Positions 59,571 through 64,000 of a DNA stretch of 64,000 bases are shown here, piece after piece. The stretch comes from an uncultured bacterium (GTDB lineage Bacteria > Zixibacteria > MSB-5A5 > GN15 > FEB-12), in contig CBDVDR010000009.1 in assembly GCA_965372795.1 (NCBI GenBank), positions 58,599-122,598 of the forward strand. Reading direction: 5' to 3'. The position numbers and the translations under genes were made by a program. How positions within the stretch are numbered: the first letter of the stretch is position 1; the number at the start of each line of letters is the position of its first letter. The notes under the pieces are model-generated. The model saw only the letters and a list, made by a program, of their open reading frames with translations. It made no database searches and had not been told where the DNA came from.

Positions 59571-59777
59571 AAATGGGTTCGTTTTGTTACTTTTGTATAC
59601 TTGCGCATATTTCAAATGTTTCGGTACTTTAAAGGTGCTTTGTGTGATTTTCTGTGTTTTTTTACATCGTGTGATTTATTGATTTTTGTAGTTCGAATTT
59701 TGGACATAGCTCAACGTTCCTCTTTTTATAAAGGGACGCGGAATAGCATTCACCAATGAAATTGTGGGGAAATTGCG
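59571..59777 (-). repeat. Left copy of a long imperfect inverted repeat (partner 63337-63563)
   Basis: Collinear reverse-complement match, with exact blocks of 26 nt (59595-59620/63513-63538), 17 nt (59761-59777/63337-63353) and 14 nt (59571-59584/63550-63563). Confidence 0.9.
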
Positions 59778-59863: not shown

Positions 59864-60367
59864 CTATATCCAATTTATGATATTGTTATAATTAGATCCT
59901 AACGTAGCTCCTGAAATTAACGTAATTAACCAAATAATAAACGAAACAAGTCTTCTTGTATTCTTGCCCTCTTCTGATTTAGCTGTGAGCTCTTTTCTAA
60001 GGGATACTTCCATTTCTTCCTTAAATGCTGAATAGTGTTCTTTATTAATATTTGATATTACTTCATATTTTTGTGCTAACCTTTTTTTATCCTCGATCTC
60101 ATTCAACAAAGTGTCTAATTGAGTTGTTTGTGTAGCTAACTCTGTTTGCATCGATGATATGATATTATTAGCTCTGTTAAGGTGGAATCGTGCTTCTTCA
60201 ACCTTTTCTTTTTCATCTTTAGTTTCGGGGAAAAAATCAGCAAAATGTTTTCCAATAGTATGAGTTGTAATCACTTGAATCTGATCTTCAGTAAATAATG
60301 ATCCATTTATTAAACGTATCAATTCCATTGTAATTTTATTATATAGTTGAATAACATTGAATATCAT
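59864..60367 (-). CDS. Coiled-coil protein with C-terminal transmembrane helix
   Basis: Heptad-like E/K/Q-rich middle; RRLVSFIIWLITLISGATLG at the C-terminus; AAGGTG RBS. Confidence 0.7.
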   Translation of the reverse strand: MIFNVIQLYNKITMELIRLINGSLFTEDQIQVITTHTIGKHFADFFPETKDEKEKVEEARFHLNRANNIISSMQTELATQTTQLDTLLNEIEDKKRLAQKYEVISNINKEHYSAFKEEMEVSLRKELTAKSEEGKNTRRLVSFIIWLITLISGATLGSNYNNIINWI

Positions 60368-60491
60368 TTACATCACCTTAAATAAAGTTAAATTATATTT
60401 TGATATAATTTTTATATCCCTGAACATTTCAAAAGCGCACAAAATAATAATTTAATTACTATGCCAGTTATCCCACACCTTGTAGTTAGTG

Positions 60492-61799
60492 TTAATAATT
60501 CATATAAAAATCACAAACGTTATAGTAAACTTTTCTTTCTGCATCACTTGGAATATATCGTTCTTGCGATAACCAAGGAATAGATGGAAATTCCTCTATC
60601 CCATCTATTCCTAATCTTGTTATGCAACTGATATCTATTGATGGATTAAATAGCTTCTTGATATCTTCACTTTCTCTTAGGTCATATATACTTCTATGAT
60701 TTAATATCATAGCAGACAGAAACGTCGCAAAAATTGTATTACTATTGACAATTCTTTTCTTTTTAAAAGAATCAAAATAAGTTACTTTTGAGTCCTGGTT
60801 GATGTAAAGATACTTTGAAGCTTCAAAACAAATTGTTACTCGCCAATCTGGTTCATGCCCATCATGACATTGGTGTTTATATACCAATTCTGCCTTTCTG
60901 AGAATAATTTTAATAAGCCGTATTGTCATAGTGGGAGACTTTATTAACTCATCCAAAAAGGAAATAATTTGTCCTTTATTGTTTTCTCCCGACCAAGCCA
61001 CATACCCATTCGGCCAATTTTTCTGACCTTCAAAAAGTGTGTCTTCAAACACACTCTCGACAAACTTCTCTAGTCCATTGTGTTTTGGATTAAAAAACTC
61101 GAAATAATCAATACATTTTAAATAAGAGTCTATGTTTTTTTCATAGTTCTCTTCACCCATTGGTACAACAACAATGACTTTTTTACTTAGACATGAATCT
61201 CTTAAAAACTGCTTCAAGGTTTCCAAAAAGAATACACCAGAATCACCTGATCTGTCAATATCTTCAACAACTATAAAAATATTTGAATCCTGCTTGTTAA
61301 TAATATCAGTTAATATATTTTGTATATCAAACACTCTCGTTGCAGGTGAGATTTTAAATATTTCAATGAACTTATTTAATACTTTGAGAGATGGAAACTT
61401 ATTTGTAAATCTCAACAGTAAATCCGCTGAGAGATCAACCTTCTCAGACTTTGCATCTTTCCCATCTATTTTTTTTTGAACTTCATTCCTATTTCCTACT
61501 TGATCCGCAAAATCTAAAACAAATCCTTCCCATAAATCTTTTCTTTCAGGGTATTTCCAAGCATCAAAATTAATCCATATCTCTTTATTTTCTTTCTTAT
61601 TTTGCTTTTCTTTTTGGATTTGGTAAAGCATAGTGCTCTTACCAGTGCCGAATTTTCCGATCAAACCTATTATGGCTGTTCTATCAATAGTTTCTAACCT
61701 GTTTGAGAATGCAGTAATTGATTCAGAAAAATCTAATAGATCTTCAACTCTGCAATCTTCTTGTATTAGATCATAATTTTTTATAAATCCATCTGTCAT
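60492..61799 (-). CDS. KAP-family P-loop NTPase
   Basis: Walker A GKFGTGKST, FDAWKY KAP signature, Walker B IFIVVEDIDR, YLKCID. Confidence 0.85.
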   Translation of the reverse strand: MTDGFIKNYDLIQEDCRVEDLLDFSESITAFSNRLETIDRTAIIGLIGKFGTGKSTMLYQIQKEKQNKKENKEIWINFDAWKYPERKDLWEGFVLDFADQVGNRNEVQKKIDGKDAKSEKVDLSADLLLRFTNKFPSLKVLNKFIEIFKISPATRVFDIQNILTDIINKQDSNIFIVVEDIDRSGDSGVFFLETLKQFLRDSCLSKKVIVVVPMGEENYEKNIDSYLKCIDYFEFFNPKHNGLEKFVESVFEDTLFEGQKNWPNGYVAWSGENNKGQIISFLDELIKSPTMTIRLIKIILRKAELVYKHQCHDGHEPDWRVTICFEASKYLYINQDSKVTYFDSFKKKRIVNSNTIFATFLSAMILNHRSIYDLRESEDIKKLFNPSIDISCITRLGIDGIEEFPSIPWLSQERYIPSDAERKVYYNVCDFYMNY

Positions 61800-61801
61800 A
61801 A

Positions 61802-63238
61802 CTATTTTTTACTCTTACTTTCTTTAAATAGAATTGTTGAGAATCCTTTTATCTTTTCAAAAAGTTCATCAAAAGTAACAATATCGACATCTCTACTATT
61901 GCTTCTAAATAGTTCAAATGATTTTTTTTCATCTTTATTGTGTTTAGATAAAGTACCTACTATAACGATACATTTTGAATTATATGATTGAATAGAGTCA
62001 TTACTTTTAGATTGTAAACTATAGAACTCTTTTTGTAAATTGTCTCTTTGGTCAAGAACTTGATTTATTGCTGCATTAAGTTCTTTGTTTATTGCAAACA
62101 CATCATTACCGCGATAGGGGATCTTGCCTGTAAGTAAAGGTGTTTTGTGAGTCTTGATTTCAATTAAAGCAATATTGTCTGTTAGTTGATTCTTGTAAAT
62201 AAAGTCGGATACTTTCCCACCTGTACCATGAATGCCCTTTCCACCTACATAAGCTTCATCTTCATATAATAGAACGGGAAATGAGAACAATTGAGAAAAA
62301 ATCCAACTATACTCCTTAAAAAACTTCTGCCATCTTTTCTCAAGTTTAGGGGTATGATGCATCTGTTTCATCATTTCCTGAAATTTATCGATAACTTCCT
62401 CAATATAGTATTCCTCAATCTTCTCTTTTGTTATCAATACTTGTTTTTTATCAAGTTTTTCACTGACTTGAGATATATTGTTCACTATATCAAAAAGAGA
62501 AGTAATATCATCAGCAGATAGTTCGCTATTGTTCAATTTGCTCTGTTTTATAAATCTGTTTAAGCTACCCTTTGTATATTTTGTGATTGTACTTTTAAAC
62601 TTATTCGGAAACAGCTTTGCGAGAATATTTACTTCTAATTCCTTTTGCTTATTGGTTTGCTCTACAATTAGAGAGTTTAATTGTGGATATATCTCATTAA
62701 GATCGTTTGCATTGAGAACAATAGTTTTATTTCTATATGATGTCTTTCGTGTTCCACTAACAATTACCGAAGGCAACTTTAATTGCTTGTCTAAAGCTTT
62801 AAGAAGACCATTCAATACTTTTGTAAAACCATATCCCTTTCCCCATACCTTATTGAAACCTCGAGGTAACTTTTCAGGCATATTTTCATAAACAATTGAA
62901 ATTATATTTTTATATTTAGGAATTCCAGTTTTCCAGAACGGATAATGGATAACTTTTTTTACGTTTTTAAAGATTTCTTTTGATTTAATATTTATATTAT
63001 TTTGTTTATCTATGTAATGATAGACATCCTTGGTTGTCGCCTGGTTAACCAGTATTTCATTTGGTTCTAAAGGATTTTGAGTAACTTTCTTCTTTGCTAC
63101 TTTCTTCTTGGCTACTTTTTTCTTAGCTACTTTTTTCTTAGCTACTTTTTTCTTAGCTACTTTCTTCTTAGCTACTTTCTTCTTTGCTACTTTCTTAACA
63201 GCTGTTTTTCTTTTGGTCACTTTCTTCTTTACAGCCAT
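61802..63238 (-). CDS. sduA: Shedu (SduA, DUF4263) anti-phage nuclease with histone-H1-like N-terminal repeats
   Basis: EKRWQKFFKEYSWIF, YVGGK, SDF...LIEIKT PD-(D/E)xK core, AAINQVLDQR, FELFR...IVTFDEL; GGAGG RBS favours a start at 63238/63241. Confidence 0.88.
   Translation of the reverse strand: MAVKKKVTKRKTAVKKVAKKKVAKKKVAKKKVAKKKVAKKKVAKKKVAKKKVTQNPLEPNEILVNQATTKDVYHYIDKQNNINIKSKEIFKNVKKVIHYPFWKTGIPKYKNIISIVYENMPEKLPRGFNKVWGKGYGFTKVLNGLLKALDKQLKLPSVIVSGTRKTSYRNKTIVLNANDLNEIYPQLNSLIVEQTNKQKELEVNILAKLFPNKFKSTITKYTKGSLNRFIKQSKLNNSELSADDITSLFDIVNNISQVSEKLDKKQVLITKEKIEEYYIEEVIDKFQEMMKQMHHTPKLEKRWQKFFKEYSWIFSQLFSFPVLLYEDEAYVGGKGIHGTGGKVSDFIYKNQLTDNIALIEIKTHKTPLLTGKIPYRGNDVFAINKELNAAINQVLDQRDNLQKEFYSLQSKSNDSIQSYNSKCIVIVGTLSKHNKDEKKSFELFRSNSRDVDIVTFDELFEKIKGFSTILFKESKSKK
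63084..63196 (-). repeat. 15-nt coding tandem repeat encoding (AKKKV)7
   Basis: GCTAC recurs at 63096, 63111, 63126, 63141, 63156, 63171, 63186; differences between units are synonymous. Confidence 0.95.
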
Positions 63239-63291
63239 CATTCCCTCCATTTTATAATATGTCCAGAATAATTCTTCCCACGATTTTATAA

Positions 63292-63320
63292 AATATACTG
63301 AACATCACCTGATTCGTCAA
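63292..63320 (-). promoter_or_regulatory. Sigma70 promoter for the Shedu-KAP cassette
   Basis: TTGACG-17-TATATT just inside the right inverted repeat. Confidence 0.6.
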
Positions 63321-63336
63321 CGATTTATTCACCCCC

Positions 63337-63563
63337 CGCAATTTCCCCACAATATCAATGGTGAATGAGAAATCGTACCCCTTTATAAAAGGAGGAACGG
63401 TGAGTTATGTCCAAAATCCCAACCACGAAGTATGCGTAAGTATACAAAATTCACAAAATCACACGATGCAAAATAACACTCAAATTCACAGAATGTGCCC
63501 TTACGGTACCGTAACATTTGAAATATGCGCAAGTATACGAATAATGAGCAAACGAACCCATTT
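63337..63563 (+). repeat. Right copy of the long imperfect inverted repeat (partner 59571-59777)
   Basis: See left copy; carries an extra ~19-nt insertion near 63424-63442. Confidence 0.9.
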
Positions 63564-63617
63564 CATAAATCAAATTGAGAATGTTAAAATTACGCCAGAG
63601 AAAAATACACGAAGTGT

Positions 63618-63859
63618 GCAAACGAACCCATTTTCGTTGTACAACACGCCACCCCAACAACTTACACCGAAAAAAAGGCAGGTCTGCGGGGAGACCTGCC
63701 CTACGAAGAAAATTAACCAAGTATGCGTACGTATACAAAGTATGATTGATTATAAAACACACTAAATGAGCAAACGAACCCATTTTGGTTGTACAACACA
63801 CCACCACAATGACTTACACCGAGAAAAAGGCAGGTCTGCGGGGAGACCTGCCCTACGAA
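63618..63859 (+). repeat. Two ~90-bp direct repeats (period 152) with GCAAACGAACCCATTTT, a 27-bp GTAC..ACTTAC site and a GTAG-type REP hairpin
   Basis: Copies start at 63618 and 63770; identical GGCAGGTCTGCGGGGAGACCTGCCCTAC at 63677 and 63829. Confidence 0.9.
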
Positions 63860-63871
63860 AATATAAAACAC

Positions 63872-64000
63872 ACGAAGTGTGAGATTGCTTCGCTTTGCTC
63901 GCAATGACAGGTCGAAGACATAGACACACCATGTGTGCGAAGTATACGAAGTGTGAGATTGCTTCGCTTTGCTCGCAATGACAGGTCGAAGACATAGACA
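63872..64000 (+). repeat. Two exact 55-nt direct repeats (period 74) containing the REP-like GAGATTGCTTCGCTTTGCTCGCAATGAC
   Basis: 63872-63926 equals 63946-64000; the array may continue beyond the window. Confidence 0.9.

Follow-up and report, generated by a model that had tools for sequence, protein, structure and literature searches.

A Type 1B Shedu nuclease with an added (AKKKV)n tail in an uncultured Zixibacteria bacterium

SduA, as found here, is a 478 aa protein encoded on the minus strand of a 64,000 nt stretch of contig CBDVDR010000009.1 (assembly GCA_965372795.1) from an uncultured bacterium of the Zixibacteria; this whole stretch is called the window, and positions are counted from its first letter. 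The protein is a known type of Shedu, Type 1B with an N53 N-terminal domain, bearing an unusual added tail of seven lysine-rich AKKKV pentamers, and is not a new kind of system. Sequence comparison across the family marks the tail as an outlier, found on no other Shedu examined. The anatomy of the gene and its repeat is established with high confidence; a role of the tail in tethering the enzyme to DNA is proposed by analogy and held with lower confidence. Taken as a whole, the combination of an acquired Type 1B N53 Shedu and a young, local repeat tail acting as a non-specific DNA tether is judged to have somewhat better than even chances. A preliminary description had placed the tail and a DUF4263 nuclease correctly at 61802..63238, to which the minus strand is now added. 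The features of the gene are as follows.

61802..63238, minus strand: sduA (Shedu Type 1B; N53, DUF4263 and the extra tail), 478 aa; from the open reading frame (ORF), Pfam, PADLOC and a profile match
63244..63248, minus strand: Shine-Dalgarno GGAGG, 5 nt before the ATG at 63238; from sequence
63083..63238, minus strand: polycationic tail, residues 1-52, MAVKKKVTKRKTAVKK followed by seven VAKKK units and V; from translation
63086..63190, minus strand: seven 15-nt core units (GTA GCN AAG AAR AAA); from Tandem Repeats Finder and a unit table
62549..63073, minus strand: N53 N-terminal domain (putatively NRF1-type) including a long helix, residues ~56-230; from AlphaFold and homologues listed as N53
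62345..62548, minus strand: helical linker, residues ~231-298; from model helices 242-258 and 264-290, and alignment with the B. cereus SduA linker
61862..62344, minus strand: DUF4263 / SduA_C PD-(D/E)xK nuclease domain, residues 299-459, with D345, E360 and K362; from Pfam, alignment and Foldseek

The repeat is delimited by Tandem Repeats Finder at 63084-63196 with a period of 15, 7.5 copies, 94% matches and a score of 184. Its seven VAKKK units (nt 63086-63190) occur in four nucleotide versions and encode one peptide; variation is confined to two third-codon positions, in the Ala codon (A/T/C) and in the second Lys codon (G/A), and is synonymous at both, as had been described. The first 66 residues of SduA carry a net charge of about +27, most of it contributed by the tail. 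The AlphaFold model features a helix from residue 7 to 47 at a predicted local distance difference test (pLDDT) value of ~65-76, with values <50 at 1-8 and 48-55; from this pLDDT profile the tail is read as having no reliable structure. The tail had been called histone-H1-like; lysine-rich pentamers of variable number do characterize chlamydial Hc2 (PMC2848022), and the name is apt for composition, however every family model falls below its cut-off. Pfam HC2 matches residues 3-54 at 24.4 bits (cut-off 40), NCBIfam Hc2 scores 19.5 bits (cut-off 135), and the Burkholderia-type H1-like model 22.7 (cut-off 80); by these profiles the tail resembles the Hc2 family in composition and repeat type only.

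The longest ORF over sduA spans 61802..63250 on the minus strand, and the sequence at its 5' end is ATGGAGGGAATGATGGCT, the third ATG of which lies at 63238. This ATG is the likely best start, giving a protein that begins MAVKKK, because GGAGG sits 5 nt ahead of it. After codon 7 there is no in-frame ATG, GTG or TTG until Met123, which lies inside the conserved strands of N53, and starting there would cut those strands off; therefore the tail must be translated, and the earlier assumption of translation through the repeat is borne out, a downstream start being unlikely. The scan of the three-gene cassette to which sduA belongs returned no terminator site, and a consensus scan upstream of the gene gave one promoter-like site, which is weak as the region contains 31 such sites against 19.7 expected:

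63292..63320, minus strand: promoter-like TTGACG-17-TATATT, 10/12 consensus

Antisense frames over the repeat (63077-63271, plus strand) form Phe/Leu-rich ORFs of 49-64 aa; they simply mirror the lysine repeat and are not genes.

A survey of DUF4263 proteins for such tails had been proposed, and it revealed none comparable among 119 listed homologues, 80 genomic loci and 81 catalogued N53 entries. The homologue search gave 689 proteins at E <= 0.001, the best 120 of which were listed (119 besides the query); the repeat tail is present in none of these 119. One of them (P0088) starts MAKKVKKKVAKKK, a 13-residue miniature of the tail, and two others (P0083 and P0117) have moderately basic N-terminal extensions of ~30 residues. 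The peptide ahead of the conserved TK.VYHY motif was measured in 112 of the 119, seven truncated or motif-less records being dropped; it has a median length of 15 residues (3-41) and a net charge of +1 (-5 to +9), compared with 66 residues and +27 in the tailed SduA. None of the 80 genomic loci encodes a lysine repeat in the open frame ahead of the match, followed as far as the next stop. In Table S3 of Gu et al. (PMC10441436) the N-terminal lengths of the 81 N53 entries are 159-268 residues, mostly 241-256; that of the tailed SduA is ~298. Residues 1-60 used as a query against a collection of 5.8 billion proteins gave 74 matches at E <= 0.001 from 8,000 scored candidates, and only the query itself carries PF14082. 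In the available portions of Gu et al. (PMC10441436), a polycationic unstructured extension is not among the 79 N-terminal families surveyed; in those of Gu et al. and Loeff et al., the word histone occurs 0 times, and lysine (four times in one text, 0 in the other) is never used for a tail.

The body of the protein is that of a Shedu nuclease, as had been proposed. Pfam SduA_C (PF14082) matches residues 299-459 at 92.9 bits (cut-off 27; 3.1e-26), and the PADLOC SduA model PDLC00384 covers residues 27-475 at 3.6e-83. D345, E360 and K362 are invariant in an alignment of 31 sequences (SduA and 30 homologues) and align with the DFLY and EIK stretches of B. cereus SduA 8ti8; a profile built from that alignment matches 8ti8 over linker and nuclease at E 1.4e-57. 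The full AlphaFold model (pLDDT 79) aligns by Foldseek with 8ti9 at E 8e-12 and TMt 0.81. By these matches SduA is an intact Shedu nuclease with its catalytic residues kept.

The region between tail and nuclease had been described as an unknown domain of ~230 aa; the domain is present, but it is already catalogued. Gu et al. sorted 7,687 Shedu proteins by N-terminal domain, and their Type 1B comprises an NRF1 fold of unknown function (PMC10441436, Table S3); the N-terminal regions of Shedu are considered variable regulatory or sensor modules in the same work, in accordance with the preliminary description. Six species with homologous loci were looked up (Flavobacterium aquidurense, Chitinophaga rupis, Brumimicrobium salinarum, Seonamhaeicola W255, Cyclobacterium xiamenense and Carboxylicivirga linearis); all six are listed by Gu et al. 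as 4263N53+DUF4263, and four also stand on the Type 1B sheet, the match being made by species or strain name, not accession. Homologues from N53-listed species are 37-56% identical to SduA. By tblastn the matches run from residue ~34-61 to 470 in C. rupis, C. linearis, Seonamhaeicola W255 and F. aquidurense and from 61 to 470 in B. salinarum, and cover only 153-470 in C. xiamenense, where the contig is short. Homology thus identified makes the domain N53 of Type 1B, catalogued and with no known function. A separate model of residues 55-230 is confident (pLDDT 91); Foldseek gives no match to the PDB at E <= 0.001, and VIA-align against 48,161 chains gives no Z >= 5, most rows matching only the long helix 130-176. 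The sole rows spanning most of the model are weak, and both are E. coli SduA: 8ps4_A (Z 3.9, root-mean-square deviation (rmsd) 5.4, 136 residues) and the isolated N-domain 8ps6_A (Z 3.8, rmsd 4.6, 118 residues).

The gene is shown by sequence comparison to have been acquired horizontally within a foreign, low-GC cassette, because the protein body is without counterpart in 40 relatives, the GC content of the cassette is low, and the best full-length homologues are 53-56% identical, the named ones coming from other phyla. The three-gene cassette (59864 to 63238), not found in the 40 relatives, has a GC content of 27-34%, compared with 38-46% in the flanks and 38% in the 3.35 Mb host genome. The 40 relatives range from the same genus to the same order, and none encodes a relative of the Shedu body bar one weak match (G005; E 5e-4, 22% identity, residues 283-464); seven of the 40 match SduA, all at residues 1-60. 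The closest homologue, P0002 (66% identity), is an N-terminally incomplete record of 364 aa.

The AKKKV motif itself is, on the genomes and metagenomes searched, widespread and typical of the host lineage and not special to Shedu. An exact (AKKKV)3 coding pattern occurs at three host loci, namely sduA, a gene for a SWIB-domain protein and a gene for a 104-aa H1-like protein, and in 13 of 151 genomes of the phylum (the host included), while a reversed control pattern occurs in none. SWIB and H1-like ORFs of the relatives bear AKKKV repeats in differing unit numbers. A looser census of the host (ORFs of at least 80 aa with a 30-residue window of K+R >= 40% and simple residues >= 90%) returned 11 ORFs; Lys/Ala-rich tails are seen on pyruvate phosphate dikinase (N-terminal; C2:199586-202450), inositol-1-phosphate synthase (C-terminal; C13:68958-70154) and ribosomal protein L22 (C-terminal; C15:19547-20113). 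In the search with residues 1-60, all 73 non-query matches (P0121-P0193) contain AKKKV units, 1 to 24 each; metagenome carriers include adenylate kinases, with the tail at the C-terminus, and DksA, CarD, fumarate hydratase, ParA-like proteins and others, with the tail at the N-terminus. None of the 73 is a defence nuclease. The literature matches listed hold nothing on AKKKV-type bacterial tails, and a query combining Zixibacteria with histone or lysine-rich terms likewise returned nothing relevant.

The small H1-like protein of the host (C7:86245-86556, L101) starts MRKAKKTTKRKV, continues as (AKKKV)n and ends in a Cys-rich stretch with the conserved pattern C..K.K.GK.CKR....GKFCS.HK; it occurs in several related genomes (among them L083 and L088) with differing unit numbers, and its sequence suggests that it may be a zinc-binding nucleoid protein.

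The array in sduA is read from its units as a young, local, in-frame expansion, because its units vary less than those of the resident SWIB and H1-like arrays. Its mean pairwise unit identity is 0.917, with four versions in seven units and one peptide; the corresponding values are 0.802, 11 versions in 12 units and three peptides for the H1-like array, and 0.785, eight versions in nine units and three peptides for the SWIB array. By blastn the Shedu array is 77-87% identical to the resident arrays, inside the repeats only, so that it may or may not have been copied in from a resident gene. Confidence in a local origin of the tail is moderate. Tuning by repeat number, an earlier suggestion, is plausible given that the unit numbers of resident SWIB and H1-like proteins differ between related genomes, however no second allele of the tailed Shedu was found. 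At most 14% of the sampled words were recovered from any sequencing run; in the four runs compared, the repeat at 63073-63198 is matched by thousands of short contigs, 90-99% alike there but continuing into unlike sequence, and the unique flanks of sduA are without cover except 62947-63009 in one DNA run. All that follows from these matches is that coding repeats of the AKKKV type are frequent in those marine and sediment data.

Solved Shedu structures provide the basis for a proposed function. Their nuclease domains assemble into a tetramer, at either end of which lie the N-terminal domains; the latter restrain the nuclease, removal of the N-terminal part making the enzyme toxic. The N-domains of E. 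coli SduA grip free dsDNA ends, placing the DNA so that it can be nicked (Gu et al., PMC10441436; Loeff et al.). It is proposed that a short N-terminal peptide, like the one of median 15 residues and ~+1 charge seen in the homologues, was lengthened by in-frame amplification of a 15-nt unit to a tail of 52 residues; four such tails would project from the N53 domains at the ends of the tetramer, by analogy with the solved tetramers. The tails would bind polyanions with no sequence preference and tether the enzyme to DNA, raising the rate of encounter with whatever DNA feature N53 recognizes, and tail length could be adjusted through slippage of the 15-nt repeat. A more specific version is tentative and improbable as it stands, namely that a repeat from host chromatin proteins has been fitted to an imported nuclease; here, four (AKKKV)7 tails would park the tetramer on the nucleoid beside the SWIB and H1-like proteins, sampling DNA for a trigger (e.g. 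free ends), with slippage tuning the strength of the hold.

Several observations weigh against the reading of a young, local tail that tethers SduA to DNA. No 5' non-coding similarity between sduA and the resident tailed genes is found by blastn, and a common peptide and common codon usage would by themselves account for the 77-87% identity inside the repeats. The record of P0002, the closest homologue, lacks its front end, and instead of arising locally the tail may have come from a donor that already carried it. The structural likeness of N53 to the end-clamp domain of E. coli SduA is at most suggestive, lying below any safe threshold (Z < 5), and the number of units is taken from the assembly. 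Similar tails are also borne by enzymes that do not act on DNA (in the host, pyruvate phosphate dikinase, inositol-1-phosphate synthase and L22; elsewhere, adenylate kinase and fumarase), so the tail need not concern DNA or defence. The capture of invading DNA put forward in the preliminary description is one option among several for a related reason, since the motif decorates metabolic and ribosomal proteins of the host as well.

The alternative that survives best, though it is considered unlikely, is that the tail is a tolerated by-product: AAG/AAA-rich 15-nt units would expand at gene ends in an AT-rich, slippage-prone lineage, nearly neutrally, and add nothing to Shedu function. The presence of the same kind of tail on many unrelated proteins, the youth and uniformity of the array, and the fact that no other N53 Shedu needs a tail are all in keeping with this; however, every difference between units is synonymous and the frame is kept, four tails of ~+27 each would hardly be without effect on a putative tetramer that acts on DNA, and in the resident arrays many synonymous changes have left an AKKKV-type peptide in place, a sign of selection on that peptide. 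Less probable again is that the tail directs the enzyme to some other polyanion or compartment, be it polyphosphate granules, RNA or ribosomes, or a condensate, and so regulates its availability rather than DNA capture. An action of the H1-like protein AlgP on the polyphosphate granules of Pseudomonas has been reported (PMC9239181), and metabolic enzymes bear similar tails, but nothing specific to the tailed SduA favors such a role, and within the host the exact AKKKV motif is otherwise carried by SWIB and H1-like proteins, which are of chromatin type. That the tail is an autoinhibitory or cleavable pro-peptide (the alternative named in the preliminary description), masking the N53 sensor or the DNA channel until removed or displaced, is very improbable: the nuclease of Shedu is indeed restrained by the N-terminal region, but the cassette has no protease gene, the tail has no cleavage motif, and the available portions of Gu et al. 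and Loeff et al. offer no precedent. Least probable of all is an assembly artefact, in the array as such or in the number of its units, or a translation start downstream of the tail; although the short-repeat region lies close to a contig end and no sequencing run containing this organism was found, an identical 478-aa SduA stands in the protein database on two contigs, the longer of 270,505 bp, and the Shine-Dalgarno site and the distance to Met123 speak for the upstream start.

If the more specific version is correct, in which a host chromatin repeat parks the tetramer on the nucleoid, the gene would exemplify a host-specific route for adapting a horizontally acquired defence gene; if the tail is neutral, it would be an ordinary case. 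The gene also illustrates how a newly acquired gene can gain a lineage-typical, low-complexity module. A main concern of Shedu research is the sensing of infection, and the restraint of the nuclease, by the variable N-terminal region, and a naturally tailed N53 protein allows a clean comparison with and without the tail, which would reveal whether non-specific DNA affinity alters triggering, self-toxicity or range.

The remainder of the cassette and its borders comprise the following features.

60492..61799, minus strand: gene for a KAP-family P-loop NTPase, 435 aa, beginning 2 nt after the sduA stop; Pfam KAP_NTPase at 35 bits (cut-off 20)
59864..60367, minus strand: ORF of 167 aa, the last cassette gene; no family above threshold
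59582..59777, no strand: left arm of the ~200-nt inverted repeats flanking the cassette, pairs I1 and I2, 82-83% complementary
63337..63541, no strand: right arm of the flanking inverted repeats, 82-83% complementary to the left arm

The KAP NTPase and the 167-aa ORF were considered as Shedu partners and rejected, as the adjacency is absent at 80 Shedu loci and five KAP loci. A KAP relative is encoded at none of the 80 Shedu loci and Shedu at none of the five KAP loci; the 167-aa ORF has no neighbor match at the 80 Shedu loci or at the loci of KAP homologues. The five KAP loci are from metagenomes and encode relatives of 39-70% identity, four of them within a type I restriction-modification (R-M) operon. 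In these four, HsdS is upstream in all, HsdM is present in three, and every locus long enough to show it (three) has HsdR downstream; the relatives at these loci (L092-L095) are 44-70% identical and lie between hsdS and hsdR. From this gene order, the KAP-family NTPase gene could be an accessory of type I R-M systems that is so far unstudied. Judged by gene neighborhoods, the cassette is a small mosaic of defence genes and not a dedicated Shedu partner pair, because KAP is absent from the 80 Shedu loci and its relatives are found in type I R-M operons; Shedu is often found alongside R-M systems (Gu et al., PMC10441436), which a mosaic fits.

The flanking inverted repeats are made of a repeat that is dispersed over many host contigs, with a recurring core of ~80 nt; from this distribution they could be an element similar to repetitive extragenic palindromes (REP) or miniature inverted-repeat transposable elements (MITE), or a trace of mobility of the cassette. 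Window base 64000 is the end of the contig, and the tandem repeats at 63602-64000 probably explain the assembly break there; they comprise 106-nt copies spaced 152 nt apart (91% identity) and a 55-nt unit that recurs exactly, 74 nt apart.

Amongst known systems, the tailed SduA is closest to the Type 1B N53 Shedu of Gu et al. (PMC10441436), with which it shares an N-terminal domain, a helical linker, DUF4263 and the catalytic D/E/K residues; it differs in ~50 extra N-terminal (AKKKV)n residues and in an adjoining KAP NTPase gene unseen beside the members examined. The SduA of B. cereus (8ti8/8ti9) has the same nuclease domain, however its N-domain is of the sPC4/Whirly kind (Type 1A) and it has no polycationic tail. 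E. coli SduA (8ps4/8ps5/8ps6) is similar in overall layout, with a weak N-domain match (Z 3.8-3.9), and is likewise without the tail. The (AKKKV)n-tailed housekeeping proteins of metagenomes display the same pentamer at their N- or C-termini, often starting MAVKKKV or MAKKKV, whereas their carriers are not defence nucleases. Chlamydial Hc2 (hctB) and the H1-like proteins (PF07382; NF038052, NF038053) share lysine-rich pentamers of variable number and give weak profile matches over residues 3-54; in those proteins the repeat belongs to a stand-alone nucleoid protein, while here it forms a tail on an enzyme.

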